From an uncultured Verrucomicrobiota bacterium (lineage in GTDB: Bacteria > Verrucomicrobiota > Kiritimatiellia > CAIKKV01 > CAITUY01): a stretch of DNA of 64,000 nucleotides. The stretch covers positions 7,694 through 71,693 of the forward strand of contig CAZSSA010000001.1 of assembly GCA_964609375.1 (NCBI GenBank). Reading direction: 5' to 3'. The first letter of the stretch is position 1; every line of letters begins with the position of its first letter. Shown one piece after another: positions 1 through 47,596 of the stretch. The notes beneath the pieces are model-generated. The model was not told the DNA's origin, searched no databases, and was given only the letters and a program-made list of their open reading frames with translations. The position numbers were made by a program, and so were the translations under genes.

Positions 1-365
1 AGCCCATCCACAAGGGCAAAATCGCTCGCTGGCTTCACCCCCGCCAACGCCCGGCCCATGGCCAGATGCGTGGCCCGCAAGATGTTTCGGTCATCAATTT
101 CCTGGACGCTCGCCACTCCCACCGCAAAAGAAACACGGGAAGATCCCGTCAGGAATCCATAGAGATCTTCGCGCTGAGTTACGGAAAGTCGCTTAGAGTC
201 ATTAACCCCCTTGAGTAAGCCATATTGCTCATCCTCAAGGAAATCACGCTCGAACACCAACGCCGCAGCGACAACGGGACCCGCTAAGGGGCCCCGCCCG
301 GCCTCGTCCACTCCTGCCAGTCGCCGATGCCCCTGCTCCCAAGCCTGACGCTCGAACTGGAGCAA
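1..365 (-). CDS. rnhB: Ribonuclease HII, N-terminal ~121 codons; 3' end lies beyond the window start
   Basis: Minus-frame translation reads LQFERQAWEQGHRRLAGVDEAGRGPLAGPVVAAALVFERDF...DSKRLS...EIDDRNILRATHLAMGRALAG, the RNase HII N-terminal signature. TTG start 11 nt after the rplS stop. Not in the ORF track because it is truncated. Confidence 0.75.
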   Translation of the reverse strand, partial: MLQFERQAWEQGHRRLAGVDEAGRGPLAGPVVAAALVFERDFLEDEQYGLLKGVNDSKRLSVTQREDLYGFLTGSSRVSFAVGVASVQEIDDRNILRATHLAMGRALAGVKPASDFALVDG

Positions 366-376
366 TCCAAATCTCC

Positions 377-743
377 TCAGGCTTCCGCCATCTTGGATTT
401 TTCGCGCAGCTTTGCGCTCTTTCCTGACCGGTCGCGCAGGTAATACAACTTGGCACGACGCGCCTTGCCGGAACTTTCAACCTCAAGTTTGGCAATATTC
501 GGCGAATGCACGGGAAAAACCCTTTCCACCCCAACGCCATGCGAAACTCTCCGAACGGTAAAGGTTTCGGTAGCCGCATGCCCGTCACGGGCAATCACAG
601 TTCCAGTGTAGGCCTGCAAACGTTCCTTGCCGCCTTCGCGGATCCGGACCTGTATCTTGACAGTGTCCCCTACGTTGAACGGCGGCAGAACATCCTGCCT
701 CAGGTTTTCCTTATGAATCATGGCCAATGCTTTAGCAATCATA
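377..743 (-). CDS. rplS: 50S ribosomal protein L19
   Basis: Protein reads MIAKALAMIHKENLRQDVLPPFNVGDTVKIQVRIREGGKERLQAYTGTVIARDG...RRVSHGVGVERVFPVHSPNI, typical L19. Start moved to the internal ATG at 743; the track ORF extends to 811. Confidence 0.9.
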
Positions 744-750
744 GTCACCT

Positions 751-1428
751 CTATTCCAACAAGTCCGGTCTTTTCTCCCGGGTCCGACTTTGCGCCTGCT
801 CGCGCCTCCACCGGGCAATTTCCTCATGGTCCCCCGAGACCAGAATTTCGGGAACCCTCAACCCTCTAAACTCCTTCGGTCGCGTATACTGCGGATACTC
901 CAACATACCACCCGCAAACGACTCCTCCTTCGTGGCGCTATCATTCCCCAAAACACCAGGCACCAACCGGACCACAGCATCAATCACAACCGCCGCCGGC
1001 AGAACCCCGTTGGTCAACACATAGTCGCCAATCGAAATCTCTTCATTCACCAAGTGGGTTCGAACCCTCTCGTCCACCCCCTCATAGTGACCACAGACAA
1101 AGATCAAATGCGATTCCTGCGCCAACTGCGCCGCCATCGCCTGCTCAAAACGCCGCCCTTGCGGCGTCATCAATATCACCTTCGATGCCGGTCTCCTCAC
1201 CGACTCCACCGCTTCAAACAAAGGCTCCGGCTTCATCACCATTCCCGGCCCGCCGCCAAACGGCCTATCATCCGTCGTCTGATGCCGATCCCTGGTAAAC
1301 CGGCGAAGATCCACAGCCTGAATCGTCGCCAACCCCTTCTGAGCCGCCCGCTTCAGGATGCTTTCATCAAGAAAGCCTTTCAACATACCCGGAAAAATCG
1401 TAACGACATCAATCTGTAACGGCTCCAT
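751..1428 (-). CDS. trmD: tRNA (guanine37-N1)-methyltransferase
   Basis: [15 protein letters not shown]...[13 protein letters not shown]...LMTPQGRRF...[15 protein letters not shown] matches the TrmD family. Start placed at the conserved ME..IDVVT motif. Confidence 0.9.
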
Positions 1429-1435
1429 GGCCTGC

Positions 1436-1666
1436 TTATTCCGCCACTTCCAAAACCGCACGACGCCCCTCTTTAGACGCCAGATTGCTCAGTAACACCC
1501 GAAGGGCACTGATCGTCTTTCCACTTCGGCCAATCAGCCGCCCCACATCTTTGGGATGGCACCGAAGCTCAAGAATTGTCGTTTGCTTCCCTGTCACCTC
1601 GGTGACGGCCACATCGCCCGGATGATCAAGCAATGCACGGGTTATATACAATACAAACGGCTTCAT
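1436..1666 (-). CDS. khpA: KH-domain RNA-binding protein (KhpA/YlqC-like) in the slot usually holding rimM
   Basis: 76 aa, [18 protein letters not shown] is a KH-domain GxxG loop. Located between rpsP and trmD. Confidence 0.7.
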
Positions 1667-1920
1667 GCGCTGGTCTTGGCCGAAGCACGGAACTTGCGCA
1701 ACAGGCTCTTCACGGTATCACTAACTTGAGCGCCTTTGCTCGTCCAGTACTCAATCCGATCCATTTTAAGACTGAAATTGACACCCTTCTTCTTCGGGTC
1801 ATACCACCCAATGACTTCCAGGTTCTTCCCGTCTCGCGGGCTTCGACTATCTGCGGCGACCACACGGTAAGCTATATCCTTGTTCGCTCCCGTTCGGGTC
1901 ATTCTGATTTTAACTGACAT
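1663..1920 (-). CDS. rpsP: 30S ribosomal protein S16
   Basis: MSVKIRMTRTGANKDIAYRVVAADSRSPRDGKNLEVIGWYDP is a typical S16 N-terminus. Confidence 0.9.
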   Translation of the reverse strand: MSVKIRMTRTGANKDIAYRVVAADSRSPRDGKNLEVIGWYDPKKKGVNFSLKMDRIEYWTSKGAQVSDTVKSLLRKFRASAKTSA

Positions 1921-1999
1921 CCCGTCCTCCCTTGAAATATGGCCTGCAGGGCAAAGTCCACCCTGAGTACAGGCGTAAAAAGTGGGTCACTATTTCACA

Positions 2000-3334
2000 T
2001 TATCGTCGAGGGCGCAACCTCTTTTGTAACGCCCCCATCCTTTTAGCCATCTGCCGCGCCTGGTCAAACTGCCTGAGCAATTCGTTGACATCCTGAACTT
2101 GTGTGCCGCTCCCCATCGCAATACGACGCTTGCGTCCAGCATTGAGAATCTCTGGCCGCCTCCGTTCCTTCCGCGTCATGCTCAGAATAATGGCCTCAGC
2201 CCGCCTTGAAAAACGCTCAAAATCGCGCCCCGCACTGGCGGCATCTCTCATTTTCGCCTTTACCTGACCACCCATTGGCAACATCTCGAGCAAATTTTCA
2301 AAGGGCCCCATTTTGCGTAACTGCGCCAACTGACCAAGAAAATCCTCCAAATCCAACCGACTTCCCCGAATTTTCTTTTCAACATCTGCCACCTGCTCGA
2401 TATCAACCGTCAGTTGAACCTTCTCCACCAAACTGACAATATCACCCATGCCAAGAATTCGGGAAGCCATGCGTTCAGGGTAAAAGGCATCAAGATCTCC
2501 CGTGTGCTCTCCGGTTCCTGTAAACAGGATCGGACATCCAGTAACCGACTGAATAGATAGAGCTGCACCACCCCTCGCATCACCATCCAGCTTCGTCAGT
2601 ATCAACCCCTTGAGATCAAGCGCTTTATGAAAAACATCTGCAACATGAACCGACTCCTGCCCGATCGCCGCATCCACCACCAGAAGGGTGTTCCGGCACT
2701 TCACGACTTCCCGTAACTCTTTCAACTCCTGGACTAATTCCTCATCAATCTGGAAACGCCCACCCGTATCAAACAAGACAACATCACGTCCGCTCCGTTC
2801 TGCCATGTCCATGGCCCGGTGACCCAAGGCGGGCACTTTCTCGTCTTTTCCCGGTCCCAACATCTCAACACCAACTTGACCAGCCAACACACGCAACTGA
2901 TCAACAGCCGCTGGCCGCCGAATATCGGCACCCACCAACAAAACGTTTTTCCCATCCTTTTTCCACATCGCCGCCAGCTTTGCAGAGGATGTTGTCTTGC
3001 CCGAACCGTGTAACCCCACCAGCATCACAGGCGCCGGCTTTGGATTCAGCTCCAAACGCCGGTTCCGCCCTCCGCCAAGCAGGCTGACCAACTCGTCATG
3101 CACCCGCTTAATCACCTGCTGCCCGGGAGTAATGCTATCCAATACTTCCTGCCCCACGCATTGCGCACTCACCTTGGACACAAAGTCACGAGCCACCTCA
3201 TAATTGACATCCGCCTCAAGCAATGCCATGCGCACCTCGCGCATGGCATCGCGTATATTGTCTTCTGAAAGGCGACCATATCCGCGAAGCTTGCGGAATA
3301 CCTGTTCCAACGAATGGGTCAACGATTCAAACAC
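2000..3334 (-). CDS. ffh: Signal recognition particle protein Ffh
   Basis: SRP54 N and G domains (GLHGSGKTTSSAKLA, DTGGR, TKLDGDARGGAA) plus a Met-rich M domain. Probable GTG start at 3334, with GGGAGG 6 nt upstream. Confidence 0.95.
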   Translation of the reverse strand: MFESLTHSLEQVFRKLRGYGRLSEDNIRDAMREVRMALLEADVNYEVARDFVSKVSAQCVGQEVLDSITPGQQVIKRVHDELVSLLGGGRNRRLELNPKPAPVMLVGLHGSGKTTSSAKLAAMWKKDGKNVLLVGADIRRPAAVDQLRVLAGQVGVEMLGPGKDEKVPALGHRAMDMAERSGRDVVLFDTGGRFQIDEELVQELKELREVVKCRNTLLVVDAAIGQESVHVADVFHKALDLKGLILTKLDGDARGGAALSIQSVTGCPILFTGTGEHTGDLDAFYPERMASRILGMGDIVSLVEKVQLTVDIEQVADVEKKIRGSRLDLEDFLGQLAQLRKMGPFENLLEMLPMGGQVKAKMRDAASAGRDFERFSRRAEAIILSMTRKERRRPEILNAGRKRRIAMGSGTQVQDVNELLRQFDQARQMAKRMGALQKRLRPRR

Positions 3335-3355
3335 GTTTCCTCCCGAAAATCACAT

Positions 3356-3376
3356 GCGCGCCACGGGACGGCGCGC
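3356..3376 (-). terminator. GC hairpin (GCGCGCC-N7-GGCGCGC) between clpC and ffh. On the minus strand it is followed by a GATTTT segment, then the GGGAGG Shine-Dalgarno and the GTG start of ffh. Possible partial terminator or attenuator.
   Basis: Inverted repeat read directly from the sequence; the T-run after the stem is short. Confidence 0.3.
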
Positions 3377-3432
3377 ACAAACACTCGACCTTCACCTAAT
3401 TTAACCTTTGCCAAAACCAGCGCCTTTCAGTC

Positions 3433-5913
3433 TCAGGCGTTTACTTCAACCCCTGCCACAACCCGGAACGCCAACCCTCCATCGGCTTTCACAACCTCAA
3501 CTTTTTTGGCCCCATGTAAATCTCCCCTGAGAATCTCTTCGGCTAAAGGATCCTCCAAATAACGCTGCACGGCACGTCGAAGCGGACGAGCACCCATGGC
3601 CACATCAAACCCCTTGTCCAGCAGGAACTCCCGCGCGTCGGGGATCAGCACCAACTCGATCCCCTTGGCGGCCACACGTTTCTGGACCTTGGCCACTTCG
3701 AGTCCAAGGATCTTAATCGTATCATCCCTGGATAACTGGCGGAACACAACAATTTCATCCAACCGGTTGATGAATTCCGGCTTGAACATCCGCTTAACGT
3801 CCTCAAGCATCCTCTGCTTCAACATCTCATAATCCAGCGCTCCGCTGGTTTCCGTAAATCCCAATCCCGCTTTCCGACCGAAATCAGCGCCCAGGTTTGT
3901 AGTCAGAATAATCACCGTATTCCGGAAATCAATGGGACGCCCAAAGCTATCCGTCAACCGCCCTTCCTCCATAATCTGAAGGAGCATGTGCATCACATCC
4001 GGATGCGCCTTCTCAATCTCATCAAACAAAACCACGGAATAGGGACGGCGCCGAACCTTTTCCGTCAACTGCCCCCCCTCCTCGTAACCCACATATCCCG
4101 GCGGAGATCCCACCAACCGTGAAACGGTAAATTTCTCCATGTATTCGGACATATCAAGCTGGATCAGGGCATTCGGATCATCAAACATGAACTCCGCCAG
4201 CGCTTTCGCCAACAAGGTTTTCCCAACCCCCGTCGGTCCTAGAAAAACAAACGAACCGATCGGGCGCTTGGGGTCCTTCAGATCCGCACGCGACCTCCGA
4301 AGCGCTTTTGATATCGCCAAAATGGCAGGATCCTGCCCTACCACCGTCTTCCCAAGCTCCTCCTCCATCTGAAGAAGGCGGGCAAGCTCCTTGCCCTCCA
4401 TTTTTTTCAGGGGAACCCCCGTCCATTTGGACACAACGGCCATCACTTCTTCCGCTGTCACCTTAACTTTTTTCTTCTGGGACACTTCCCGCCACTTCTT
4501 CACGCTCTCTTCAAGCGCTTCACGTTCCCTGCGTTCCAAATCACGCAATTGAGCCGCATCTTCAAACTTCTGGGCTTTAATCGCCGCTTCTTTCTGAATC
4601 CGGATCTTCTCGATACCCTGTTCTTTCTTGCGCAGGTCGGGAGATCGGGTGGTCGCTTGAATCCGCGCACGGGACCCAGCCTCATCAATGGTATCAATAG
4701 CCTTGTCCGGAAGACGCCTCCCGGATAGATACCGGTCAGTCAACCGGGCCGCCGCTTCAATGGCATCATCAGTAATTTTGACCCCGTGATGCTCCTCGTA
4801 TTTATAACGAATACCTTTCAAAATCCGAATGGCTTCATCCACGGTCGGCTCATTGACCTGTACCGTCTGGAACCGCCGCTCCAATGCACTGTCTTTCTCA
4901 ATATGCTTGCGATACTCATCGAGCGTCGTTGCACCAATACATTGCAACTCCCCGCGCGCCAAGGCGGGCTTAATAATATTCGAGGCATCCATCGTACCCT
5001 CAGCCGACCCCGCCCCCACAATCGTATGCAATTCATCAACAAATAACATGACATTCCCAGACCGGCGTATCTCGTCCATGACCGCCTTAATTCTCTCCTC
5101 AAACTGTCCGCGATACTTGGTCCCTGCAATCATAAGGGCTAAATCCAACGCAATAACACGTTTATTCCTCAAGATATCAGGCACCAGCCCTTGCACGATC
5201 ACTTGGGCAAGACCCTCGGCAATGGCCGTCTTGCCAACCCCAGCTTCACCAAGCAAAACAGGATTGTTTTTGGTTCTACGGCAAAGGATCTGAATGACGC
5301 GCTCCAACTCAGGCTCTCGCCCAATCATCGGATCTAACGCTCCCTTTTTCGCCATTTCCGTTAAATCCCTCCCAAAAGCGTTTAAAGCGGGGGTCTTCTG
5401 CTTGGTGGCAGCCGGTGGCGTTTGCTTTGTCTTTGGCTCCGGAGTCTCGGATTCCTCTCCAGGCTCAAAATTCGGATCAAGCTCCTTCATGACTTCGACT
5501 CGCGTCGTGTCAACATCAACATTCAGCGCCCGTAATACTTGAGCGGCCACCCCTTCTCCTTCCCGCAACAACCCCAACAAGATATGCTCAGTCCCGATAT
5601 AGGAATGATTCAAGGTGCGAGCCTCAGTCGCCGCCAATTGCAGGACTTTTTTCGCACGGGGAGTAAAGGGAACGTTGCCGACTGTCTTGGTTTCCGGCCC
5701 CTGACCAACCAGTTTCTCCACCTCTAACCGCATGGACTCCAACGAGATACCCATGCGATCAAGCACCGTCACAGCCACCCCGGATCCCAGCGCCACCAAC
5801 CCGAGCAGAATATGCTCCGTCCCAACATAAGGATGGTTGAACCGTTCCGCCTCAGAGCGAGCCAGTTGAATAACCTGCTGGGCTCGCGGTGTATAATTTC
5901 CTGAATTTGCCAT
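3433..5913 (-). CDS. clpC: ATP-dependent Clp protease ATP-binding subunit ClpC
   Basis: 826 aa. Two Clp_N repeats at the N-terminus, two AAA+ modules ([30 protein letters not shown]), a UVR-like middle region and a ClpB-D2 small domain. Confidence 0.95.
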
Positions 5914-5934
5914 ATAAAAACCAATCCTTGCGGG

Positions 5935-6996
5935 TTAACCAACCAATGTAGCCCGCCTTACAACTTCTCTCACTCGCGCCGCCCGCAACTCATCCCGCTC
6001 CTCAGGCTTCACAAACTGCCCCGCCGATTTCTGCAAGTGACCGGGCTGCGAACACAGCGTTAACCGGTTAATATCCGCCATCTCCAATCCCTCAATCATA
6101 CCAAGATCAAATCCAAGGCGCAACCCGGAGAGCAAGTCCAGTGTTTCACGCGATGTCAACACCCTCGCATGACACAAGACACCATAGGCCCTTCCAACAA
6201 AATCCCGGATCCGGCTTTCCCGCTGCTCCATCAGCCGAATTCTGGCATTTCGCTCGTGATTGGCAATTTCATTCACAATTTGAGCGAGTCGCTCAATAAT
6301 AGCCGCTTCCGATTCACCCAATGTAGTCTGGTTCGAGACCTGAAACATATTCCCCGTCGCCTCCGTCCCCTCACCCAGAAGCCCCCGAACCATCAGACCA
6401 ATCTTGCTCAACCCCTTGATAATTGGCTCGATTTCATTCGCCAATCGCAATGCCGGCACATGCAACATCACACTAGCTCGGAGCCCTGTGCCTACATTCG
6501 TCGGACATGCCGTCAAATACCCAAGCCTCGGCGAAAACGCATAATGAACTTTCTCCTCAATTTCGGAGTCCATCATGTCAATTTCTCGCCATAGTTCATT
6601 AAGTAATAATCCCGGACGCATCGCTTGTAACCGAAGATGATCCTCCTCATTCACCATGACCCCAAGAATCTCGTCCGGCCGCACCACAAGGCAACTCCCC
6701 CGCGACTTCCGGACCAGTTCCATACTGATCAAATGCCGCTCATGAAGAAAATCCTTGTCCTGCAATGGGATATCCCCCATGTCAACACCCATGGCAGAAT
6801 CAAGCGATTTCACCGTTCCAAGAACGTCCTCCATCTGACGTTGAACCCGAAGACACTCCTCCTCGCCAGCCCAACCAGGAAAGGCAATGCCATGGAGATT
6901 CCTCGCCAACCGGATACGACTGCTGATAACAATCATATTACGCCCGTCTTCAGGCAACCATGAGCCGGGTTTACTTACTAAATCATCCAGCTTCAT
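5935..6996 (-). CDS. mcsB: Protein arginine kinase McsB (ATP:guanido phosphotransferase family)
   Basis: 353 aa. SSRIRLARNL, CPTNVGTGLRASVMLHVPAL and EATGNMFQVSNQ motifs of phosphagen-kinase-like McsB. Lies immediately upstream of clpC. Confidence 0.9.
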   Translation of the reverse strand: MKLDDLVSKPGSWLPEDGRNMIVISSRIRLARNLHGIAFPGWAGEEECLRVQRQMEDVLGTVKSLDSAMGVDMGDIPLQDKDFLHERHLISMELVRKSRGSCLVVRPDEILGVMVNEEDHLRLQAMRPGLLLNELWREIDMMDSEIEEKVHYAFSPRLGYLTACPTNVGTGLRASVMLHVPALRLANEIEPIIKGLSKIGLMVRGLLGEGTEATGNMFQVSNQTTLGESEAAIIERLAQIVNEIANHERNARIRLMEQRESRIRDFVGRAYGVLCHARVLTSRETLDLLSGLRLGFDLGMIEGLEMADINRLTLCSQPGHLQKSAGQFVKPEERDELRAARVREVVRRATLVG

Positions 6997-7474
6997 GCCC
7001 CGCCTCCCGAATCAAATCCCGCACTTGCGCCGCTCGCTCATAGTCTTCACACTTGATGGCATCATCAAGGTCTCCTTGAAGCTTCACCACCCTCGACTTC
7101 ACCCCCACCACTTGACGGACAGTCCTTGGAACCTTTCCTTTGTGTGTCACGCCTTTATGCATCGCCGCCAACATCGGTTTAAGGTCTTCACCAAACGACT
7201 CATAACAACGTTCACACCCAAGACGCCCCGTTTTTTTAAAATCCGTTCCCCGAAGGTGGCAGTAAGGACAACGGCGATTCAAGAACCCAGAAGCATCATC
7301 ACCACCCGCCAGTCCAAAAAGAATCTCCGGAATGGACATGACATTCTGAACATTCAGTCCGCTTTCCTCTGCGCACTCCTCGCATAAGTGCAATTCCCTG
7401 CTATTACCGTCAATCACTTGCGATACATGAATGGAGGCTTCACTCTGATGACAGCTATCACAAAGCATACTCAC
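6983..7474 (-). CDS. mcsA: McsA-like activator of McsB (Cys4 zinc fingers plus UvrB/C-like motif)
   Basis: CDSCHQ...LCEECAEE and RCPYC...CERC cysteine pairs, and a C-terminal DYERAAQVRDLI UVR-like motif. Overlaps mcsB by 14 nt. Confidence 0.75.
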   Translation of the reverse strand: MSMLCDSCHQSEASIHVSQVIDGNSRELHLCEECAEESGLNVQNVMSIPEILFGLAGGDDASGFLNRRCPYCHLRGTDFKKTGRLGCERCYESFGEDLKPMLAAMHKGVTHKGKVPRTVRQVVGVKSRVVKLQGDLDDAIKCEDYERAAQVRDLIREAGHEAG

Positions 7475-7721: not shown

Positions 7722-7780
7722 GAGTGTAGAGTTGAAGTGAGATGTTTTTATATCTATTTGTATTCAATGGGGTGAATAAA

Positions 7781-9208
7781 ATGAAAAAAATGATTGGAAT
7801 ATTAGCGGCTTCTGTTCTGGCTCAGCTGGCATACGCTCAGGCGACTTCTTCTGTCCCCTATCAAATCACGTTTGAGAATTACGGCGCAGGGTCTTCGATC
7901 CTGAGCAACGCCAATAATGACGGCTGGTTTGGCACCGAGGGCACGGTGGCTGTCGTGACAAACATCCAGTACACACCTGCTATGCAGTCTTATCTGACAA
8001 ACTCCGTAAGCCACTCCAATGTGCTGAAGTTCTCGGACGGAACCATTTCCAATATGTTCGATGGCAGCGGCCTGTCGGACATCGTTATAGACACAATGAT
8101 CCAGCCGGTCCGCAGCGAGGCACCCACCTCGCAGACGATGCTCGCTGTCAGTAATTCACAAGTCTCTCTCTACTTCGATACGAATGGTTACATCAATGTG
8201 TATCATGGTGTAATGACAAATGCGGATTATGGCAATCCTCCCCATTCCGCACAATGGAGCGTACTAAGCAATGGATTTGGTGCCGCTGAATCGGGAGCTT
8301 GGGTACGCGTCACCGTCAATATGAAGCATGACGGCGATTCATCAATGTCGTACTTTAAAATGAAAATAAACAATACGGAGTTCGTGAACCCTCTGGCATA
8401 TTCAGACACAGCTGGCTCATTGACACCAACGGGTTCATGGTTCCTGTGCGCCAATTACAATCAAAACAAGTTGAACCAGATCGCCATAAATGGCAGCGGC
8501 ATGCTGGATGACTTCGTCGTGGCCACTACCGAAGGAAGCTATGTAGCCGCCGCTCCTACCGTCTATGTAATGATTGCCGGCAACGGAGGCAGCGTCACTC
8601 CTCCTGGACCCGTCGTTTTCACAGCCAGCCCCGGTGAGACAAACTTTGTCATTCTCGCTTCAAACTACTACCAGATTTCCTCGGTTTATACCGGCGCTTA
8701 TCAGGGAGTTTCAAACCTTGTCGCCACAGAGGAGGGTGCTGTAAGCAATAGTTTTGTTTGGGCGAATATCACAGGAAACTCCTCTTTGTTTGTGACGTTT
8801 GCCCCTATGTTGGCTGCAAGCAACGTGCCGCTTTACTGGATGGCTGACAGGTCCCCGACCAACGGAGATTACCCAACGTGGGACAGCGTGTCCCTGAGCG
8901 ACGTGGACGGCGACGGCATGGTGACTTGGAAGGAGTATATCGCCCGAACTCATCCCGGCAACTCCAACTCCGTGCTGAGAATCTTAAGCCAGACGTTCAG
9001 CAACGGTTTGCCGCGTATCGTCTGGTCCGGCAGCACAGAACCTGATCGCCCCGCCTCCATGATTCAACTGTCGACGAATCTGGTCGACATCGACTCTTGG
9101 ACCGCCATTAGCAACAATATTCCTGCTGACGCCAGCGGGACCAATGAGTGGAAGGCCTCTGCGCCTGCTCCAACGCCAGCGTTCTACCGGGTGTCAGTCA
9201 CAAACTGA
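7781..9208 (+). CDS. Secreted hypothetical protein. Signal peptide, a beta-rich region with InlB-B-repeat-like segments, a DVDGDGM calcium-binding-like motif, and a C-terminal module shared with the 1716-aa subtilase
   Basis: Start placed at MKKMIGILAASVLAQLAYAQA (GGGGTGA Shine-Dalgarno 6 nt upstream); the track ORF starts at 7742. The C-terminus ...PAFYRVSVTN aligns with ...VRFYRITVEKP of the 51186 protein. Confidence 0.8.
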   Translation: MKKMIGILAASVLAQLAYAQATSSVPYQITFENYGAGSSILSNANNDGWFGTEGTVAVVTNIQYTPAMQSYLTNSVSHSNVLKFSDGTISNMFDGSGLSDIVIDTMIQPVRSEAPTSQTMLAVSNSQVSLYFDTNGYINVYHGVMTNADYGNPPHSAQWSVLSNGFGAAESGAWVRVTVNMKHDGDSSMSYFKMKINNTEFVNPLAYSDTAGSLTPTGSWFLCANYNQNKLNQIAINGSGMLDDFVVATTEGSYVAAAPTVYVMIAGNGGSVTPPGPVVFTASPGETNFVILASNYYQISSVYTGAYQGVSNLVATEEGAVSNSFVWANITGNSSLFVTFAPMLAASNVPLYWMADRSPTNGDYPTWDSVSLSDVDGDGMVTWKEYIARTHPGNSNSVLRILSQTFSNGLPRIVWSGSTEPDRPASMIQLSTNLVDIDSWTAISNNIPADASGTNEWKASAPAPTPAFYRVSVTN

Positions 9209-36455: not shown

Positions 36456-39400
36456 TTATCCAAGCAGCTCTTGTACTTTCTTCACCGCTTCGCTCTCCTG
36501 TCTGAGCTCTTCCTCAGGAATCGGCTCTGCTAGCGGCACGAGCTTGATGTTGCGGAACATCGGGAATCCGGTCCCCCCAGGGATCAGATGCCCCATAATA
36601 ACATTCTCCTTAAACCCATACAACGTGTCCACGCGTCCAAGCGTCGCCGCTTCCGTCAACACACGTGTCGTGTCCTGGAATGATGCAGCAGAAATAAAAC
36701 TCTCCGTCTCCAACGCCGCTTTCGTCACTCCTAGCAAGGCAGGAGAAGCCTCTGCGGGACGCTTGCCTTCAGCCGCTGCTTTAATGTTGACTTCCTGGAA
36801 TGTCTGCTTCTCAACTTGCTCACCCCAAAGGAAGTCTGTATCTCCCGGATCCGTGATGCGGACCTTACGAAGCATCTGCCGGACAATAATCTCAATATGC
36901 TTGTCGTTTATGTCCACACCTTGCAGGCGATAAACTTCCTGCACTTGGTTCACGAGATATTCCTGCAACTCTTGCGGTCCGCAGATTTCAAGAATTTCCT
37001 GCGGCACCACAGGACCTTCAGTCAACTGCTGCCCCTTCTGAACAAAGTCTCCCTTGTAAACAACAATATGCTTACCCATCGGGATCAGGTGCTGCTCCTC
37101 ATCACCCGTCACCGTGTCACGAATAATCAGACAGCGGCGGCCACGCTGATTCGGACCAAAATCAACCAAGCCGTCGATCTTGGCAATCTCTGCCGCATCC
37201 TTCGGTCGTCTCGCCTCAAACAGTTCTGCAACACGCGGCAGACCTCCGGTGATATCCTTCGTCTTGGATTCCTTGCGAGGCGTCTTGGCCAGCACTTCGC
37301 CCGCCATCACCTTCTTGCCATCCTTGACCATCACATGCGCTCCGGCAGGGATATTATACGCCGTGGGCTGCTCCTTCGTGCCTGCATAAGTGATGACAAT
37401 TTGCGGATGCAAATCCTCCTTGTGCTCAAGAACAACTGTCCCCATCAACCCTGTCGATTGATCAACATCCTTCTTAACCGTAACGTTCTCAATGAAGCCA
37501 TGGAAATGAACCACACCAGGACGCTCGGCAAGAATCGGAACACTGTACGGGTCCCACTCAATGAAGCTTTGTCCCTTCTTCACCCTGCCACCATCCTGCA
37601 AGGCGATAATGGCGCCAATCGCCATGGTATGCCGCTCCACCTCCCGGCCCGCATCATCAAAGACGCCAACGGAGCCGTTCTTGTTCAACACCACAAAATT
37701 TCCGGATTCATTCTGGACAACACGAAGATTCGTGTACTGAATCACACCGTCATGCTTTGCGATCACATGCGGTTGCTTGAAGACAGAACTTGCCGTTCCA
37801 CCAATATGGAACGTACGCATCGTCAACTGGGTCCCAGGCTCACCAATGGACTGGGCAGCGATAATCCCAACCGCACCGCCTATTTCAACAAGTCGCCCTG
37901 TCGCCAAATCACGCCCGTAGCATTTGGCACATACTCCGCGTCGCGATTCGCACGTCAACACACTCCGTATGCGAACTTTTTCCACATCCGCATCCATGAT
38001 CCGATCAGCCGTGTCCTCATCGATTTGACTTCCTGCCGGCGCAAGAACTTCACGCGTAATCGTATTGACGACATCAACCAGCGTCGTCCGACCAATGATC
38101 CGATCACGGAGGGACACCAGGCTTTCTTCGCTACCGCCGATACCCTTGACTTCAATTCCGTTCAGGGTATTGCAGTCCTGCTCAATCACGCGAACATCCT
38201 GAGATACGTCCACGAGTTTTCGCGTCAAATAACCGGCATCCGCTGTCTTTAATGCCGTATCCGCCAACCCCTTACGAGCACCGTGCGTACTGATGAAGTA
38301 TTCAAGTACACTCAACCCCTCCCGGAAGTTTGATAAAATCGGCCGCTCAATAATTTCGCCGGAGGGTTTGGCCATTAAGCCACGCATACCGGCCAACTGC
38401 CGGATCTGCTGTCGACTGCCACGAGCCTTGGAATCGACCATCATGAAAATGGGATTCGCCTCCTCGCTTCCCGCATTCTCCTCAATCGCCCTATACATGG
38501 CGTTCGAGGTCTCTTCGCTAGCATGCGTCCAAATATCAACAATCTTATTATATCGCTCGCCATCCGTGATGATACCGCGACGATATTGGCTCTCCACCTC
38601 GGCTACAGCCTTGCGCGCCTTGACGATGATTCCCTCTTTCTCGGCAGGTATAATCATGTCACCCAGCCCGATTGAAATGCCAGCCAAGGTGGCATTTTCA
38701 AACCCAATATTCTTAAGGCTATCCAAGACCCTGACCGTCTCTGCATTTCCGCTCACGCGGTAGCACTGCCAGATGATTTTTCCAAGAAATGACTTGTCAC
38801 AGCAACGATTGATATAGCCCAGCGTATTAGGCAGGATTTCGTTGAAAAATACACGACCAACCGTCGTCACCAGCATCCTGCTCGTGGAATCACCAAAAAC
38901 AGTGCTGCGCTTAAAATCAGGGTTCTTAAAGCGAAGCCTGTCGTGGATCTTTACCGCTCCATCATCATACGCCAGCCGCACTTCGCTTGCATCGCCAAAA
39001 ATAGGCAAATGCTCATGCTCAACGGCCTGATCAGCCGCCTTACGTTTGACGTCTTTTGCCCGATCCTTTTGTGCAGCAGAGGTTAAATAGTAGATTCCCA
39101 ACGCGATATCCTGCGTTGGCGTCATCACAGGCCTGCCGCTCGATGGAGAAAACACGTTGTTTACCGATAGCATCAGCAAACGGGATTCCAACTGCGCCTC
39201 AACCGACAACGGAACATGCACCGCCATCTGGTCACCGTCGAAGTCGGCATTGTATGCCGTACAGACCAACGGGTGTATCTGAATGGCTTCCCCCTCTACC
39301 AGGATAGGCTCAAACGACTGAATACTCAACCGATGCAACGTCGGCGCACGATTCAACATCACCGTTTTATCACGGGTGATCTCCTCAAGAATCGCCCACA

Positions 39401-40643
39401 CCTCGTCAGACTGCTTATCAATCAATTTCTTCGCACTGCGAACGGTGTGCGCCACACCCATCTCCTTCAGGCGGCGGATAATGAATGGCTCAAAGAGCAC
39501 CAACGCCATCTTCTTGGGTAACCCGCACTGATGGAGCTTGAGATCCGGCCCCACAACAATCACCGAGCGACCCGAGTAATCCACGCGCTTACCCAGCAGG
39601 TTCTGGCGGAAACGTCCACCTTTACCCTTCAGCATATCACTCAACGACTTCAACGGACGATTGCCCGCACCAGTCACTGCACGCCCATGCCGCCCATTAT
39701 CAATAACGGCGTCAACAGCTTCCTGCAGCATGCGTTTTTCGTTCCGGATAATCACATCCGGGGTCTTTAGTTGTAACAGGTTTTTCAACCGATTATTACG
39801 ATTGATAACGCGCCGATAGAGATCATTCAAATCCGACGTTGCAAACCGCCCGCCCTCTAGCGGCACCAATGGACGCAGATCCGGCGGAATCACAGGAAGC
39901 ACTTCAAATACCATCCACTCAGGACGCATATTGCTTGTCAGGAATCCCTCAAGGACTTTCATCCGCTTGGAAATCTTTTTTCGGTTCTGCTTGCTCCGCG
40001 TTGTCGCCATCTGCGCATCGAGCTCAACCAGGGTCTTCTCGATGTCAATCTTCTTCATTAAGTCGCGAATGGCTTCAGCACCAATTCGCGCCGTAAACGT
40101 GTCACCATATTTTTCCTGCGCTTCACGGTAATCCATCTCGCTCAGAAGCTGTTTTTCCTGAAGCGGTGTATCACCAGGATCAACGACAATATAATCCTCG
40201 TAATACAACACACGCTCCAGGGCCCGCGCCGTGATGTCCAGCACCAACCCGATACGGCTCGGGGTACACTTGAAAAACCAGATGTGCGAAACCGGTACCG
40301 CCAACTCAATGTGCCCCATGCGCTCACGACGCACTCGCGACAACGTAATTTCAACGCCGCAACGATCACATATCACACCTTTGTGTTTGATCCTCTTGTA
40401 CTTTCCGCAACTACACTCCCAGTCGCGCGTCGGACCAAAAATTCTCTCGCAGAAAAGGCCTCCCTTTTCCGGCTTGTACGTGCGATAATTGATCGTTTCC
40501 GGATTTTTCACCTCGCCGTTGCTCCACGACCGGATTGTCTCCGGCGAAGCCAGCGTGATGTTTACCGAATCAAACCCCTCGGCAAGGGGTACTCCCAGCC
40601 GTTCACGGACCGCTGCGTTCGTCAAGGTTCGTTCTACCGACAT
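36456..40643 (-). CDS. rpoC: DNA-directed RNA polymerase subunit beta'
   Basis: 1395 aa. Zn-finger CxxC...CxxC near the N-terminus, NADFDGDQM catalytic loop, bridge helix and trigger loop. Confidence 0.95.
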
Positions 40644-40670
40644 AATTCCTCGGCGTTGCCGCCGCCTCCC

Positions 40671-43600
40671 TTAAGCACGTTTCTCTTTTCGCTCAGCCCG
40701 CACGTCCAACCCAATGCTGCGAAGTTCATTAATCAGCACATTGAACGATTCGGGGCGTTCCGCTTCCAACACATTCTCGCCCTTTACGATCGATTCGTAA
40801 ATCCGGGTACGGCCTGCCACATCATCGCTCTTGACCGTCAGCAACTCCTGTAATGCGTAGGCGGCTCCATAGGCTTCCAGTGCCCAAACTTCCATTTCAC
40901 CCAACCGTTGACCACCATACTGCGCCTTGCCACCCAACGGCTGCTGGGTTACCAGCGAATACGGCCCCACCGCACGGGCATGAATCTTGTCACTAACCAA
41001 ATGGTGCAGTTTCAACATGTAAATGTAACCCACCACAACCTTCTGATCAAAGGGCTCTCCTGTCCGACCGTCGTAAAGACGGGTCTTCCCATCTCGGGGA
41101 AGCTTCGCGTCATCCAGCAGATCCTTAATGTGCTTTTCAGATATGCCGTCAAACACCGGAGTGCTTGCATACAACCCCAGCAACTTGCAGGCCCACCCTA
41201 GATGCGTCTCCAACACCTGCCCCACATTCATTCGCGAAGGTACGCCTAGCGGATTCAATACAATATCCACCGGTGTTCCATCCGGGAGAAAAGGCATGTC
41301 GGCCTCAGGAAGAATCCGGGCAACAACACCCTTGTTTCCATGACGTCCGGCCATCTTGTCACCCACCGACAGTTTCTTCTTGCTGGCAATGTAGACCCGC
41401 ACCTGCTTGATGATGCCTTGATCCACTTCATCACCACTCTCCAGACGATCCATGGCGTTTTCGCACTCATGATCGAGCTCCACAAACTTCTGCTGGAACT
41501 CGCCGATGATCTCCTGGATTTTGATCTGGATCGGGCTGCTCTCGATCTCAATGTGCGCACTCTCCGCCGCCAGTTTCCTTAGCAGCGTCTTTGTGATCTT
41601 CCTGTTGGCTGGAATGATAATCTCATTGGAATCAACGTTAACCACATCCAACGGGATCTTTTCACCCAATAGAATATTGCTCAGAGCCTCGGTTAACTGC
41701 TCAACAATTTCCTGCTTCTTCGTCTTGTGCTCCTCGGCAACATTCTTTGACTGCCGGCGACGTTCTGCTGGAGTCATCTTCTCGCGCTCAATATCCTTGT
41801 GCGCCGAAACCTTGACATCCATGACAATCCCGTACGTCCCACTGGGCACCGTCAATGAGGTGTCCCTCACATCTGCAGCCTTTTCACCGAAAATAGCCCT
41901 CAAAAGCCGTTCTTCAGGCGCAAGTTCCGTTTCGCTCTTCGGCGTAATCTTGCCAACAAGAATATCATCCGGCTTCACTTCAGCACCGATACGAATAACC
42001 CCGTCCGTACCCAGATTCCGCAAGGCATCTTCCCCGACATTCGGAATGTCACGGGTAATTTCCTCGGGCCCAAGTTTCGTGTCGCGCGCGCCAACTTCAA
42101 ACTCCTGAATATGAACGGACGTGAAGACATCATCACGGACAACACGCTCGCTGATCAAGATGGCGTCTTCAAAGTTAAATCCGCACCATGGCATGAAGGC
42201 CACCAGAACATTGCGCCCCAGTGATAGCTCACCTCCAGCTGTCGCAGGACCATCAGCCAGCACGTCGCCTTTTTTAACCTTCTGACCAACCTTCACAATT
42301 GGTTTCTGGTTTAAACACGTCCCGGCATTTGATCGCATAAACTTACGCAATTTGTAAGTGTGCTCATCCTTCTTGCCCTTGGACTTAATATCACTGTTAA
42401 CCACAATCTTGGTCGCGGCAGCATAAGTCACCACACCAGACTCTTCGGCCAGTGTCAGTACGCCGGAATCACGAGCAATACGGCCTTCCAGCCCTGTCGC
42501 CACGAAAGGACGCTCAGCCTCAAGTAACGGCACCGCCTGACGCATCATGTTCGAACCCATCAAGGCGCGGTTGGCATCATCATGCTCAAGGAATGGGATA
42601 AGGCCTGCTGCCACAGACACCACCTGCTTGGGCGAGACGTCCATGTAATCAACCTTCTCCTTGGGCACTTCCAGGAACTCGCCTCTATTCCGAACGGCAA
42701 TCGAGTCACGCGACATCCGACTCTTCGCATCCAATGGCGTGTTAGCCTGGGCAATAATATATTTTTCCTCGCGATCGGCGCTCAGGAACTCCACCTCGTC
42801 ACTGACAACCCCGTTCGACACCTTGCGGTAAGGCGTCTCAATGAACCCATACTCGTTCACCTTGGCGTAAATACCCATCGACGAGATCAATCCGATATTC
42901 GGCCCTTCAGGGGTCTCAATCGGACAAATGCGCCCATAATGGCTGCTATGAACGTCTCGCACTTCAAATCCAGCACGTTCACGGCTCAACCCGCCCGGCC
43001 CCAGTGCACTCAACCGTCTCTTATGTGCCAGCTCAGACAACGGATTCGTCTGGTCCATAAACTGACTTAGTTGACTGCGCCCAAAGAAGTCCTTAACCAC
43101 CGCTGAAAGCGTCTTGGGGTTGACCAATCGCTGCGGCGTCAATGTCCCAGTCTGCGGATCGAACAACGTCATCCGCTCCCGCACAAGGCGCTCTGCCCGA
43201 GCTAAACCAATTCGGCACTGATTCTCAACGAGTTCACCTATCGTCCTTAACCGGCGGCTTCCAAGATGATCAATGTCGTCAACCGTACCCTGCCCATTGC
43301 GAATGCTGATCAAGTACCGAATCGCCGCGATCAAATCAGCACCTTCCGGGGTCAATGTCCGCTCTGCGTCGTCCGTCACACCCCCAAAAGCTTCACGCTC
43401 ATCGGCATCCTTGGTCGCCATTACAGCCTTGATAAGGGCTAAAGCATCCTTAAGTTCACTGTCTAGCTTCTGGTTAATCTTATAGCGACCTACCCGTCCC
43501 AGATCATAGCGACGCGGATCGAAGAACAAACGCTTTAACAACTGACGGGCATTGGACACCGTCGCGGGATCACCAGGCCTCAACCGCAGGTAAATATCTT

Positions 43601-44495
43601 TCAATGCATCATCCGTGGAGTGAGTCGGGTCTTCCTTCACACTCTTCAACATGATCCCGCCATCCCAGGACACATCCACGACATCGGCTTCCTTGAAGCC
43701 CGCCGCCTTCATCTGGGACAATACATTCTCGGAAACCGGCTCGAATTTTCGCGACAGCACCGTCTGCGAATCCACATCGATCACGTCATCCCGGAATACA
43801 ATATTCGCCAAGGCGTCAGCACCAATGGATTCATTGAGTTTCAGCTTCCTGAAGGTGTAAAACAGACGCAGCAAGTCTTCATCAGATCCATAACCCAATG
43901 CACGAAGGAAGGTGGTTGCAAGGAATTTCCGGCGGCGATGGCGGCGATCAAGATAGATCCACAACAAATCCGATGCGTCAAACTGAACCTCAACCCATGA
44001 GCCTCGATCGGGAATGATCCGGAATGAGTACAGCATCGACCCGCTCGAATGCACCGACTGCTCGAAACAAATTCCGGGCGAGCGATGCAACTGACTGACA
44101 ATAACGCGCTCGGCACCATTGATCACAAAGGATCCCTGGTCGGTCATGAGCGGTATTTCCCCCATGTACACGCTCTCTTCACGCACTTCATCGCCTTCCT
44201 TAAGGCGGAAGGTCACCTGAAGCGTCCCGGCATATGTCAGTCCTTCACGAAGCACCTCGCATGGATCCGTTTTCGGCAGCGAGAACTCATACTTCACAAA
44301 ATCCAGCGCATATCGTCCATCATAGCTCTCAATCGGGAAAACCTCTTTGAACACGGCTTGCAATCCCATGTTCTTTCGGCTCCCCGGGGCCACATTCAGT
44401 TGGAGGAAATCCTTGTACGATACCGTCTGAATCTCAATAAGATTCGGCGGCTCGATGACCTCGACCAATTTCCCGTAGTTCGTTCTCTCAACCAT
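40671..44495 (-). CDS. rpoB: DNA-directed RNA polymerase subunit beta
   Basis: 1274 aa. Rif-cluster region, GGQRLGEMEVWALEAYGAA near the C-terminus. Confidence 0.95.
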   Translation of the reverse strand: MVERTNYGKLVEVIEPPNLIEIQTVSYKDFLQLNVAPGSRKNMGLQAVFKEVFPIESYDGRYALDFVKYEFSLPKTDPCEVLREGLTYAGTLQVTFRLKEGDEVREESVYMGEIPLMTDQGSFVINGAERVIVSQLHRSPGICFEQSVHSSGSMLYSFRIIPDRGSWVEVQFDASDLLWIYLDRRHRRRKFLATTFLRALGYGSDEDLLRLFYTFRKLKLNESIGADALANIVFRDDVIDVDSQTVLSRKFEPVSENVLSQMKAAGFKEADVVDVSWDGGIMLKSVKEDPTHSTDDALKDIYLRLRPGDPATVSNARQLLKRLFFDPRRYDLGRVGRYKINQKLDSELKDALALIKAVMATKDADEREAFGGVTDDAERTLTPEGADLIAAIRYLISIRNGQGTVDDIDHLGSRRLRTIGELVENQCRIGLARAERLVRERMTLFDPQTGTLTPQRLVNPKTLSAVVKDFFGRSQLSQFMDQTNPLSELAHKRRLSALGPGGLSRERAGFEVRDVHSSHYGRICPIETPEGPNIGLISSMGIYAKVNEYGFIETPYRKVSNGVVSDEVEFLSADREEKYIIAQANTPLDAKSRMSRDSIAVRNRGEFLEVPKEKVDYMDVSPKQVVSVAAGLIPFLEHDDANRALMGSNMMRQAVPLLEAERPFVATGLEGRIARDSGVLTLAEESGVVTYAAATKIVVNSDIKSKGKKDEHTYKLRKFMRSNAGTCLNQKPIVKVGQKVKKGDVLADGPATAGGELSLGRNVLVAFMPWCGFNFEDAILISERVVRDDVFTSVHIQEFEVGARDTKLGPEEITRDIPNVGEDALRNLGTDGVIRIGAEVKPDDILVGKITPKSETELAPEERLLRAIFGEKAADVRDTSLTVPSGTYGIVMDVKVSAHKDIEREKMTPAERRRQSKNVAEEHKTKKQEIVEQLTEALSNILLGEKIPLDVVNVDSNEIIIPANRKITKTLLRKLAAESAHIEIESSPIQIKIQEIIGEFQQKFVELDHECENAMDRLESGDEVDQGIIKQVRVYIASKKKLSVGDKMAGRHGNKGVVARILPEADMPFLPDGTPVDIVLNPLGVPSRMNVGQVLETHLGWACKLLGLYASTPVFDGISEKHIKDLLDDAKLPRDGKTRLYDGRTGEPFDQKVVVGYIYMLKLHHLVSDKIHARAVGPYSLVTQQPLGGKAQYGGQRLGEMEVWALEAYGAAYALQELLTVKSDDVAGRTRIYESIVKGENVLEAERPESFNVLINELRSIGLDVRAERKEKRA

Positions 44496-47520: not shown

Positions 47521-47596
47521 ATGGCAGGCCAGGAGGGACTTGAACCCCCAACACCCGGTTTTGGAGACCGGTACTCTGCCAGTTGAGCTACTGGCC
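47521..47596 (-). tRNA. tRNA-Trp (anticodon CCA)
   Basis: Cloverleaf AGGCCAG-TA-GCTC...CTCCAAA...TTCAAGT...CTGGCCT-G-CCA read on the minus strand. Canonical position between rpmG and secE. Confidence 0.85.

Follow-up and report, generated by a model that had tools for sequence, protein, structure and literature searches.

Bacteria of the Planctomycetes-Verrucomicrobia-Chlamydiae (PVC) superphylum, among them Pontiella, Lentisphaera and relatives of Akkermansia, play a major part in breaking down polysaccharides in oceans, soils and guts and deploy hundreds of extracellular enzymes; to our knowledge, it is largely unknown how these enzymes cross the outer membrane or are retained on it. Among described systems, the C-terminal domains (CTDs) of the T9SS in Bacteroidota (type A, TIGR04183/PF18962; type B, TIGR04131) are beta-sandwiches of about 80–100 residues at the extreme C-terminus of Sec-exported proteases (C25 gingipain-like, C10), glycosidases and adhesins, and they occur in many copies per genome that diverge within that genome. 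We know of no T9SS outside the Bacteroidota/FCB group. The signals of the PEP-CTERM/exosortase, LPXTG/sortase and GlyGly-CTERM/rhombosortase systems are also C-terminal tags common to diverse secreted proteins. Literature searches for a C-terminal sorting domain of PVC bacteria brought up only a remark on Akkermansia: the sulfatase Amuc0953 of A. muciniphila is surface-located, its terminal CTD has been likened to T9SS CTDs, and the authors propose "a comparable system", that is, a T9SS-like one, that targets the enzyme to the surface (PMC13524802, Nat Microbiol 2026). In size, terminal position, cargo types, copy number and divergence within a genome, T9SS CTDs resemble the module treated here, which concludes two proteins encoded in the window, the whole stretch of 64,000 nt that was analysed.

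Two homologous C-terminal modules in the window

An earlier note on this DNA had singled out two open reading frames, and both exist as described there, with the quoted tail sequences reproduced exactly by the translation (ORF list; Table 1). For protein 1, an alternative in-frame ATG lies upstream at 7742 and would give 488 aa (ORF list); the start at 7781 yields the predicted signal peptide MKKMIGILAASVLAQLAYA, and MKK[MT]IG is the N-terminus of the orthologues of protein 1. A Pfam search with aa 1–361 gave no match, leaving the N-terminal ~360 aa of this protein without a Pfam family. The translation of the subtilase contains a hydrophobic N-terminal segment, LLWIVTGLTLWLIIG, and the D/H/S motifs DSGVD, HGTHVAG and GTSMATPH. 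Immediately before their stop codons, the two proteins read FYRVSVTN (protein 1) and FYRITVEKP (subtilase).

Table 1. Position of the two genes and of their parts in the window.
Feature	Position	Strand	Basis or remark
Protein 1 gene	7781..9208	+	475 aa from ATG 7781 (ORF list)
Predicted Sec signal peptide MKKMIGILAASVLAQLAYA, protein 1	7781..7837	+	Read from translation; conserved in orthologues
Module copy 1 (protein 1 tail)	8870..9205	+	HMM envelope aa 379–490 of stop-to-stop ORF
TSP3/EF-hand-like Ca2+ loop and short helix DVDGDGMVTWKEYIARTHPGNSNS, copy 1	8900..8971	+	
FN3-like beta-sandwich, copy 1	8972..9205	+	AF2 model, pLDDT 75.6, six strands
FYRVSV, last strand of copy 1	9182..9199	+	Stop codon two residues further
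Subtilase gene	51186..56336	+	1716 aa (ORF list)
Peptidase_S8 catalytic domain, subtilase aa 285–542	52038..52811	+	Pfam E 4.9e-56
Internal TSP3-type repeats of subtilase, DADNDGMDDWWEYHYFG...DSDNDNDTFSNLDEFLDRTSP	53703..53855	+	BLASTP second HSP
Module copy 2 (subtilase tail)	56013..56333	+	HMM envelope; hhalign; tblastn
TSP3-like Ca2+ loop and helix DWDHDGMINSAENTAGTDPAHAAS, copy 2	56025..56096	+	
FN3-like beta-sandwich, copy 2	56097..56333	+	
FYRITV, last strand of copy 2	56307..56324	+	Stop codon three residues further

Compared directly by BLASTP, protein 1 and the subtilase show only borderline similarity (28% identity, 75 aa aligned, E 0.011), and on this E value the resemblance might be read as a chance or compositional one between Thr/Ser/Asn-rich tails. 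Against this reading, profile A1, which consists of 17 sequences, all of them tails of protein-1 orthologues, and is independent of the subtilase, aligned end to end with the subtilase tail in hhalign (probability 94.9%, E 4.7e-8, 97 columns); furthermore, the family has thousands of members and the fold model is confident. Chance similarity is already refuted by the profile match, the family size and the fold model, and we regard its probability as negligible. When the subtilase tail alone was used in tblastn, it matched tails in unrelated genome loci with E values of about 1e-8. The two tails are homologous copies of one large protein-domain family, and the alignment that the earlier note had called convincing is thus established by profile comparison, tblastn and the family consensus. 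The motifs it had pointed out recur as the consensus of 231 modules (D.DGDGm.nWQEYiAGTDPTN.aSvFkI...W.s....Y.v..sTNL....W....gTN....FYRv.v), and the Ca2+ loop at the start and the terminal FYR[IV] strand are present in both tails. The stretches 8864..9208 and 55983..56336 of that note correspond to the two module envelopes given in Table 1. A six-frame HMM scan detected exactly two copies of the module in the window, and copy 1 is kept in 24 orthologues of protein 1.

The module of about 105 residues comprises one TSP3/EF-hand-like Ca2+ loop-helix with the pattern D.D.DG..nW.EY.AGT.P.N..S and an FN3-like beta-sandwich, the last strand of which, FYR[IV]x[IV], lies 2–6 residues ahead of the stop; in the tails inspected, 0–6 residues follow it. 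In the AF2 models, the helix is located at residues 16–21 of copy 1 and 17–23 of copy 2. The loop-helix is packed against the sandwich, so that each copy is one integrated module. In the PDB, the module profile matches EF-hand loops, and profile A5, which is restricted to the sandwich, finds the Fn3-like protein 3mpc_A with an E value of 2e-5. The topology of the sandwich is of the FN3 type, and Trp in strand B and Tyr in strands C and F are conserved, as expected for the FN3 superfamily. Judging from the models, it may possibly lack the FN3 G strand, because the module appears to end at the strand aligned with FN3 strand F and the models contain six substantial strands. The loop region of copy 1 produced weak matches to EF-hand_1 (E 0.14) and to Amuc_1099_fam (Pfam, NCBIfam), and that of copy 2 matched TSP3_bac with E 0.009 and 16.2 bits against a cut-off of 25 (Pfam). 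Amuc_1099_fam also matches aa 860–891 of the subtilase (NCBIfam). No module-family sandwich follows the internal TSP3 repeats of the subtilase, and the module HMM matches this ORF once only.

A widespread family at the C-termini of exported proteins

Restriction to the two proteins, an outcome with which the earlier note had reckoned, did not occur: a profile search retrieved 15,883 protein clusters (defined at 50% identity) at E<=1e-3 and 1,466 at E<=1e-10. No model of the sandwich was found in Pfam (newest models from 2025) or NCBIfam (release 20.0, June 2026), and the module is a real and widespread C-terminal family absent from the curated libraries searched. A genome scan, for which the tighter A4 alignment served as the query, yielded 436 confirmed loci. 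The best 80 of these 436 loci belong almost entirely to PVC bacteria (Kiritimatiellia, Lentisphaerota and Verrucomicrobiota), some genomes contributing as many as 10 loci or more, and include one Acidobacteriota-labelled MAG; as these 80 were chosen by similarity to a Kiritimatiellales-like query, they under-sample the breadth of the family beyond PVC bacteria. A word-indexed search with the 114-aa tail alone gave no match, the family being too divergent for this tool. The same kind of search with profile A2 returned mostly short 3' fragments without useful annotation.

The module is predominantly terminal. The best-scoring stretch ends no more than 10 aa from the C-terminus in 117 of 137 cases, and in genome loci, where the stop codons are known, the stop follows within 12 residues for 80 of the 84 modules. 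The non-terminal cases amount to 20 of the 137 stretches, most of which are accompanied by a second, terminal copy, and to four of the 84 modules in genome loci. Overall, some 5–15% of the copies are tandem or internal, and such copies would be uncommon if the module were purely an export signal. Proteins of 114–176 aa on long contigs that seemed to consist of the module alone were rejected: their genes had been called too short and encode beta-helix/choice-of-anchor-Q proteins that lack signal peptides.

The carriers are multi-domain proteins exported through the Sec pathway, among them proteases, glycoside hydrolases, adhesins and lectin-like and beta-helix proteins, and their passengers include Peptidase_C25, C1, C10 and S8, Laminin_G_3, Beta_helix, PKD/Big, apiosidase, melibiase and BNR. 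Signal-peptide-like N-termini, recognised by a home-made heuristic, are enriched among them (48/62 carriers vs 88/226 other ORFs of the same loci, p 6e-8). Together with the 66 Pfam families found across 50 carriers, this agrees with the initial claim that secreted proteins which are unrelated in other respects share a conserved C-terminal domain. Within one genome, modules that are 77–79% identical are attached to proteins without detectable passenger similarity; many within-genome carriers also have passenger repeats in common. Eleven of the 50 carriers contain choice-of-anchor Q, J, D or C domains (for the term, see bioRxiv 10.1101/2023.03.06.531300), and a gingipain-like carrier consists of Propeptide_C25, Peptidase_C25 and Ig, followed by the module in place of a T9SS CTD. 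From these two kinds of carriers it follows that the module occupies the position taken by sorting signals in other phyla.

Comparison with described domains and signals

As a beta-sandwich at the extreme C-terminus of Sec-exported cargo, the module is positioned just as T9SS CTDs are, and one might regard it as a divergent bona fide T9SS CTD in host bacteria that possess a T9SS. Size, beta-sandwich class, terminal position and cargo types are similar, and the Akkermansia paper (PMC13524802) likens a verrucomicrobial CTD to T9SS CTDs. However, neither the two window proteins nor any of 65 members of the family match Por_Secre_tail (PF18962), TIGR04183 or TIGR04131 at E<=0.1 (Pfam, NCBIfam), and PorU/T9SS-sortase matches in carriers were rejected because they cover the generic C25 catalytic domain only (87 bits against a cut-off of 420). 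The confinement of T9SS, as far as we know, to the Bacteroidota/FCB group also speaks against this identity. In contrast to T9SS CTDs, the module is FN3-like, and T9SS CTDs are not among the structural neighbours listed; it has an obligatory N-terminal TSP3 Ca2+ loop, is occasionally tandem or internal, and occurs in PVC bacteria rather than Bacteroidota, and no machinery is known for it. At the sequence level, identity with T9SS CTDs is largely refuted, and we consider it very improbable.

Amuc0953 resembles the module carriers in being a verrucomicrobial, Sec-exported enzyme with a small terminal beta-domain. The module profiles A2 and A5 did not retrieve from the PDB, at E<=10, the 1263-aa sulfatase chain 9s8x_A of the Akkermansia study, which from its length and domain order we take to be Amuc0953, and the Akkermansia CTD may therefore be another family. 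An Akkermansiaceae sulfatase tail, used as a link between the module and the Amuc0953 CTD, gave no match either.

The earlier assertion that the tails carry no T9SS CTD, PEP-CTERM or LPXTG motif was borne out by the Pfam and NCBIfam searches and by the lack of a hydrophobic helix. PEP-CTERM, LPXTG and GlyGly-CTERM signals and the module follow the same "choice-of-anchor" passenger domains, but the former are composed of a short motif, a transmembrane helix and a basic tail, whereas the module is a folded, soluble domain. None of the 83 tails inspected contains a hydrophobic helix; with neither such a helix nor a basic tail, the module is not a membrane-spanning or sortase-type signal.

Parts of the module are covered by existing models. 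In its first ~25 residues the module has the pattern of one canonical bacterial TSP3 repeat (PF18884; D.D.DG...E...GT.P.N..S), and TSP3_bac matches 25 of the 65 members (best E 4.6e-8), with no match on protein 1 (Pfam). Amuc_1099_fam (NF042425) matches 51 of the 65, in the loop-helix only (positions ~124–155 of the 321-position model), and at 26.7 and 12.7 bits the two proteins of the window fall short of the cut-off of 50 and of a full-length match. Both models thus cover only the loop-helix, while the sandwich lies outside them and the window copies stay below the curated cut-offs. For the sandwich, a sequence relationship is detectable with the Fn3 module of C. thermocellum CtXyl5A (PDB 3mpc/5g56), with which it has in common the conserved Trp of strand B, the Tyr of strand C and the aromatic "YYxV" strand. 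PF00041 was not detected in any of the 65 members (Pfam), and classical Fn3 modules are internal spacers, whereas the PVC module is terminal. Assignment to a known adhesion fold without a sorting role, which the earlier note had named as an adverse outcome, did not occur in simple form; yet an FN3-like fold and a TSP3 repeat are ordinary, generic extracellular/adhesion modules.

Possible roles of the module

The gene context in the window is housekeeping, and so is the neighbourhood of the gingipain-like carrier. Conserved neighbours across the 80 loci are sulfatases and the synteny of protein-1 orthologues only, and the envelope machinery for which the earlier note had suggested looking was conserved neither across these loci nor found in the window or at the gingipain-like locus.

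As the best explanation we infer, with moderate confidence, that this terminal PVC domain family serves its diverse carriers, once they have been exported by Sec, as a shared handle for localisation. A component of the envelope, be it a protein or a surface glycan, would recognise the sandwich that Ca2+ stabilises at the free C-terminus, and the module-bearing cargo would thereby reach the cell surface or be retained there. The module would be a functional analogue of T9SS CTDs or dockerins, but from a different sequence family. For the sorting or attachment role first proposed, the terminal position, the diverse exported cargo, the placement in the slot of sorting signals, the closely similar modules on dissimilar passengers within a genome and the proposal made for Akkermansia speak in favour, while the generic fold, the tandem and internal copies, the low identity (28%) of the two window copies and the lack of conserved neighbouring machinery speak against; a role as a sorting/anchoring tag is plausible but unproven. 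More specifically, the module could be the recognition tag of an undescribed PVC system for outer-membrane translocation or surface attachment, possibly including Akkermansia, an idea that we put forward tentatively and regard as rather unlikely. Such a tag would do in these bacteria what the T9SS CTD does in others, through machinery of its own, and recognition might use the exposed final strand with its conserved F-Y-R, in a sandwich that may lack the FN3 G strand.

Fold and Ca2+ loop alike are generic components of extracellular proteins, so that a plain binding or stabilising role for a terminal FN3 domain is also conceivable. The module would then be a CBM-like or adhesin-like ligand binder or a folding/stability cap without any sorting role, and gene duplication and domain shuffling would account for its spread among extracellular PVC proteins. 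This is a sizeable possibility, though not the one that we favour: the FN3 fold, the similarity in sequence to the Fn3-like module of a xylanase from a cellulosome, the common occurrence of TSP3 repeats in surface proteins, the tandem and internal copies, the passenger repeats common to many within-genome carriers, which are consistent with duplication, and the lack of linked machinery across the loci examined are all compatible with it. On the other hand, nothing would require a spacer or CBM to come last in the protein in 85–95% of cases, 2–6 residues ahead of the stop, the passengers are too diverse for a single common substrate, and in choice-of-anchor and gingipain-like architectures the module stands where known anchors do. 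A dockerin-like assembly module, in which Ca2+ loop and sandwich plug enzymes into the scaffold of a cellulosome-like surface complex, would fit the Ca2+ loop with its helix, the C-terminal location on many glycan-degrading enzymes, the many copies per genome and the origin of the closest solved sequence relative from a cellulosomal enzyme. We consider it improbable, since Dockerin_1 (PF00404) matches none of the 65 members at E<=0.1, the module has one Ca2+ loop whereas dockerins have two tandem F-hand repeats, the 3mpc match concerns an Fn3 spacer and not a dockerin or cohesin, and no scaffoldin-like partner was seen.

Should the module indeed be a tag, one HMM would define the surface/secreted proteome of the whole superphylum, help to trace the machinery through phylogenetic profiling and supply a portable surface-display tag; it would also connect with the T9SS-like route suggested in Akkermansia (PMC13524802). 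Even as a mere binding domain, it represents a very large family (over 15,000 clusters at 50% identity) that the Pfam and NCBIfam libraries searched do not contain.

Homology of the two tails and extent of the family

The open reading frames of protein 1 and of the 1716-residue subtilase exist as an earlier note had described them, and the two tail sequences quoted there are exact. Orthologues of protein 1 start at an internal methionine, position 7781 (MKKMIG...), which gives a protein of 475 residues with an N-terminus predicted to be a typical Sec signal peptide. The Peptidase_S8 domain of the subtilase covers residues 285–542 (Pfam, E 4.9e-56) and the catalytic D/H/S motifs are readable in its translation. 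As pairwise BLASTP of the two proteins was marginal (28% identity over 75 residues, E 0.011), we built an independent profile test. The tail is kept in all 24 homologues found with full-length protein 1, and A1, an alignment of 17 protein-1-homologue tails only, without that of the subtilase, matched the subtilase tail in hhalign with a probability of 94.9% and an E-value of 4.7e-8 over 97 aligned columns reaching the last residues. In tblastn the subtilase tail in turn matches tails from unrelated genomes, with E-values near 1e-8. Judged by these profile and tblastn comparisons, the two tails are homologous, as the alignment in the earlier note had suggested. A regular-expression scan of the window in six frames for a DxDxDG[MLIV] loop plus a terminal [FYW][FYW][RK][IVLA]x[IVLA] ending returned these two ORFs only, and a six-frame HMM scan found exactly two module copies.

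A search of 1.84 billion cluster representatives with the A1 profile retrieved 15,883 proteins at E≤1e-3, of which 1,466 reach E≤1e-10, so that the module is not confined to the two proteins from which the earlier note had proposed to start a profile scan. Full-module matches make up 137 of the best 150 hits; in 117 of these 137 the module ends at most 10 residues from the C-terminus, in proteins of 112 to 5,872 residues, while most of the other 20 match in more than one stretch and carry a further copy at the C-terminus, and a few are truly internal. Because predicted protein ends can be artefacts, the position test was repeated on DNA. A genome scan by pattern and tblastn, with one genome per species, yielded 436 confirmed loci, of which 80 were kept; a local HMM scan of their stop-to-stop ORFs detected 86 full modules, 84 with a known stop codon. 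The module ends at most 12 residues before the stop in 80 of the 84, the tails reading [FY][YF][RKQ][IV]x[IV], then 0–6 residues, then stop. Of the four copies that are not terminal, two stand in tandem with a terminal one. Short 'stand-alone' module proteins from a word-indexed search were rejected as truncated calls of the 3' parts of genes.

Coordinates of features in the window and in the genome loci (L numbers, each in its own coordinates)
Feature	Position	Strand
Protein 1, ORF	7742..9208	+
Protein 1, passenger	7781..8863	+
Module copy, protein 1	8870..9205	
Subtilase, 1716 aa	51186..56336	+
Internal TSP3-type repeats of subtilase	53703..53855	+
Module copy, subtilase	56013..56333	
Overlapping ORFs inside subtilase gene	51783..55096	both
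clpC-mcsB-(UVR-domain mcsA-like)	3433..7474	-
rpoB/rpoC	36456..44495	
tRNA-Trp	47522..47597	-
tRNA-Thr	49140..49215	-
L006, gingipain-like carrier	3085..6312	+
L013, weak internal copy plus terminal copy	1327..6315	+
L014, two modules about 280 residues apart	1..6309	+
L058, single internal module, then ~190 residues	3..1844	+
L063, single internal module, then ~180 residues	1962..3554	+

Fold, conserved residues and passengers

The module consists of a TSP3-type Ca2+ loop and an FN3-like sandwich. An AlphaFold2 model of the subtilase tail, calculated with 65 family members (mean pLDDT 86.9), shows a short helix (residues 17–23) followed by a beta-sandwich; a shallower model of the protein-1 tail and Foldseek agree with it. 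The full-module profile matches Fn3-like 3mpc and EF-hand Ca2+ loops in the PDB, and the sandwich-only profile A5 matches 3mpc (E 2e-5). For the loop only, TSP3_bac matches 25 of the 65 members and the TSP3-like segment of Amuc_1099_fam 51; no curated Pfam or NCBIfam model, fn3 included, covers the sandwich in any of them. In a consensus of 231 modules conservation is highest in the loop-helix (D9, D11, D13, G14, E20, G24, T25, P27, S32), with strong conservation also at W50, L66 and the F-Y-R of the final strand. Since the final FYRV strand lies opposite FN3 strand F ('YYYVV') in the 3mpc alignment and both tail models show six substantial strands only, the module may be without a canonical FN3 G strand, its edge being covered by the conserved helix or by a partner.

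Many family members have a 'P..W[LM]..YGL' motif upstream of the module, and the conserved unit of many carriers, though not of the subtilase, may begin some 15–20 residues ahead of the Ca2+ loop. Inside the subtilase lie TSP3-type repeats with a 'DGMDDWWEYHYFG' motif. Many long ORFs (150–266 aa) overlap its gene in the remaining frames of either strand; their translations, rich in Pro, Thr, Ser and Gly, are typical of frame artefacts of a long, compositionally biased gene, and they are not extra genes. The passenger of protein 1 (~360 residues) is conserved at 27–91% identity in about 24 metagenomic or MAG proteins and has no match in Pfam or NCBIfam; it may contain a LamG/ConA-like domain, to judge by strand motifs such as 'GSGMLDDFVV'. 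A ~390-residue subgroup of relatives is without the middle 'GNGGSVTPPG...' Ig-like segment, and proteins of one Kiritimatiellia and one Verrucomicrobiota MAG are 52–53% identical to protein 1, which assigns the window to the PVC superphylum and probably to Kiritimatiellia.

Carriers and possible role of the module

Among 50 carriers, 66 different Pfam families were counted, including peptidases (C25, C1, C10), Laminin_G_3, InlB-B-repeat-like domains, PKD/Big, right-handed beta-helix, BNR, apiosidase, melibiase and DUF2961; a pectate lyase and an M6 protease domain were recognised in addition by NCBIfam. Signal-peptide-like N-termini are present in 48 of 62 carriers versus 88 of 226 other ORFs of the same loci (Fisher p 6e-8) according to a home-made heuristic, not SignalP. 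Apart from one MAG labelled Acidobacteriota, the best 80 of the 436 loci come from Kiritimatiellales/Pontiella/Tichowtungia, from Lentisphaerota/Victivallales and, within Verrucomicrobiota, from Limisphaerales, Akkermansiaceae, Opitutales and Luteolibacter, and as many as 10 or more loci can lie in one genome. The family is very large and uncurated, and among the genome loci examined the module is nearly restricted to the PVC superphylum. Rare carriers lie in bins labelled Candidatus Acidoferrum (Acidobacteriota, L045) and Candidatus Binatia (P0275); they could stem from horizontal transfer or mis-binning, or the module could really be more widely distributed. Within genomes, module identity reaches 77–79% between proteins without detectable passenger similarity, in a sample chosen by similarity in which many pairs also share passenger repeats; such identity hints at exchange of modules or at their co-evolution.

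The tail fits no T9SS, PEP-CTERM or LPXTG signal, in agreement with the earlier note. Por_Secre_tail, TIGR04183 and TIGR04131 match none of the 65 members, and the structural and PDB-profile neighbours that were listed include no T9SS CTD. PEP-CTERM, LPXTG and GlyGly-CTERM were rejected, as the tails have neither hydrophobic helix nor basic tail, and dockerin because there is a single loop and Dockerin_1 is unmatched. Choice-of-anchor domains, named from proteins that end in LPXTG, PEP-CTERM or T9SS signals depending on lineage (bioRxiv 10.1101/2023.03.06.531300), are present in 11 of the 50 carriers (type Q in 8; J, D and C in 1 each), where the module sits in the slot of known anchors. The L006 protein from a PVC genome (uncultured bacterium LaPlata_bin-2000) combines Propeptide_C25, Peptidase_C25 and an Ig-like domain as in T9SS-secreted gingipains, but ends in the module; this protein, P0101 and P0108 form a group of gingipain-like carriers (Propeptide_C25, Peptidase_C25 and He_PIG). 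Matches of gingipain-like carriers to models of the T9SS sortase PorU are weak and limited to the catalytic domain, and a 'PorU' identity of two carriers was rejected on this ground (87 bits, cut-off 420). Should the module be processed, an obvious candidate for the enzyme would be a peptidase of the C25 family.

We found no account of the module as a described family in the literature. The study on the Akkermansia muciniphila sulfatase Amuc0953 (PMC13524802), a surface-located enzyme with a CTD for which a T9SS-like system was proposed, is directly relevant. A 1263-residue sulfatase chain from that study, 9s8x_A, is in the PDB and, by length and order of domains, is taken to be Amuc0953; the module profiles failed to recover it at E≤10, and the module-bearing tail of an Akkermansiaceae sulfatase did not match it.

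A plain binding or structural domain is a possible but less likely reading of the module; its building blocks are generic, the fold is a common adhesion or spacer fold, and tandem and internal copies occur. In favour of a localisation or anchor role are the strictly terminal position, the wide range of cargo, the many copies per genome in a restricted lineage, the Sec signals on carriers, the slot of known anchors that the module takes on choice-of-anchor and gingipain-like proteins, and the 77–79% identity of modules on otherwise dissimilar proteins of one genome. We lean slightly towards a localisation handle of some kind, serving delivery to or retention at the surface; that such a handle would belong to a dedicated translocation or attachment system, as yet undescribed, appears unlikely. 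The sorting or anchoring domain of the earlier note is thus consistent with position, cargo, taxonomy and the analogy with known anchors; its role stands as a proposal, and the fold is a common one. Sulfatase-only neighbours, the housekeeping context and the 28% identity between the window copies are neutral or speak against an anchor.

Gene neighbourhoods

The co-occurring envelope machinery that the earlier note had suggested looking for did not emerge: sulfatases were the only recurrent family next to module genes in the 80 loci. Both window genes lie among housekeeping genes (ffh, clpC, mcsB, purH, folD, fhs, tuf, rpoBC, Fe-ADH). The clpC-mcsB genes lie directly upstream of protein 1, and flanking genes are found again beside its orthologues in three other MAG loci (L011, L024, L065); the protein-1 gene therefore keeps synteny with an operon for housekeeping protein quality control. 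Arginine-kinase systems of the McsB/ClpC type are known above all from Firmicutes. The listed EF-Tu ORF, with a TTG start at 49184, shares its 5' end with the tRNA-Thr gene, and tuf must therefore really begin further downstream. The tRNA-Trp gene is followed by ORFs and then by rpoB/rpoC, and this order conforms to the classic arrangement tRNA-tuf-tRNA-secE/nusG-rpl-rpoBC.
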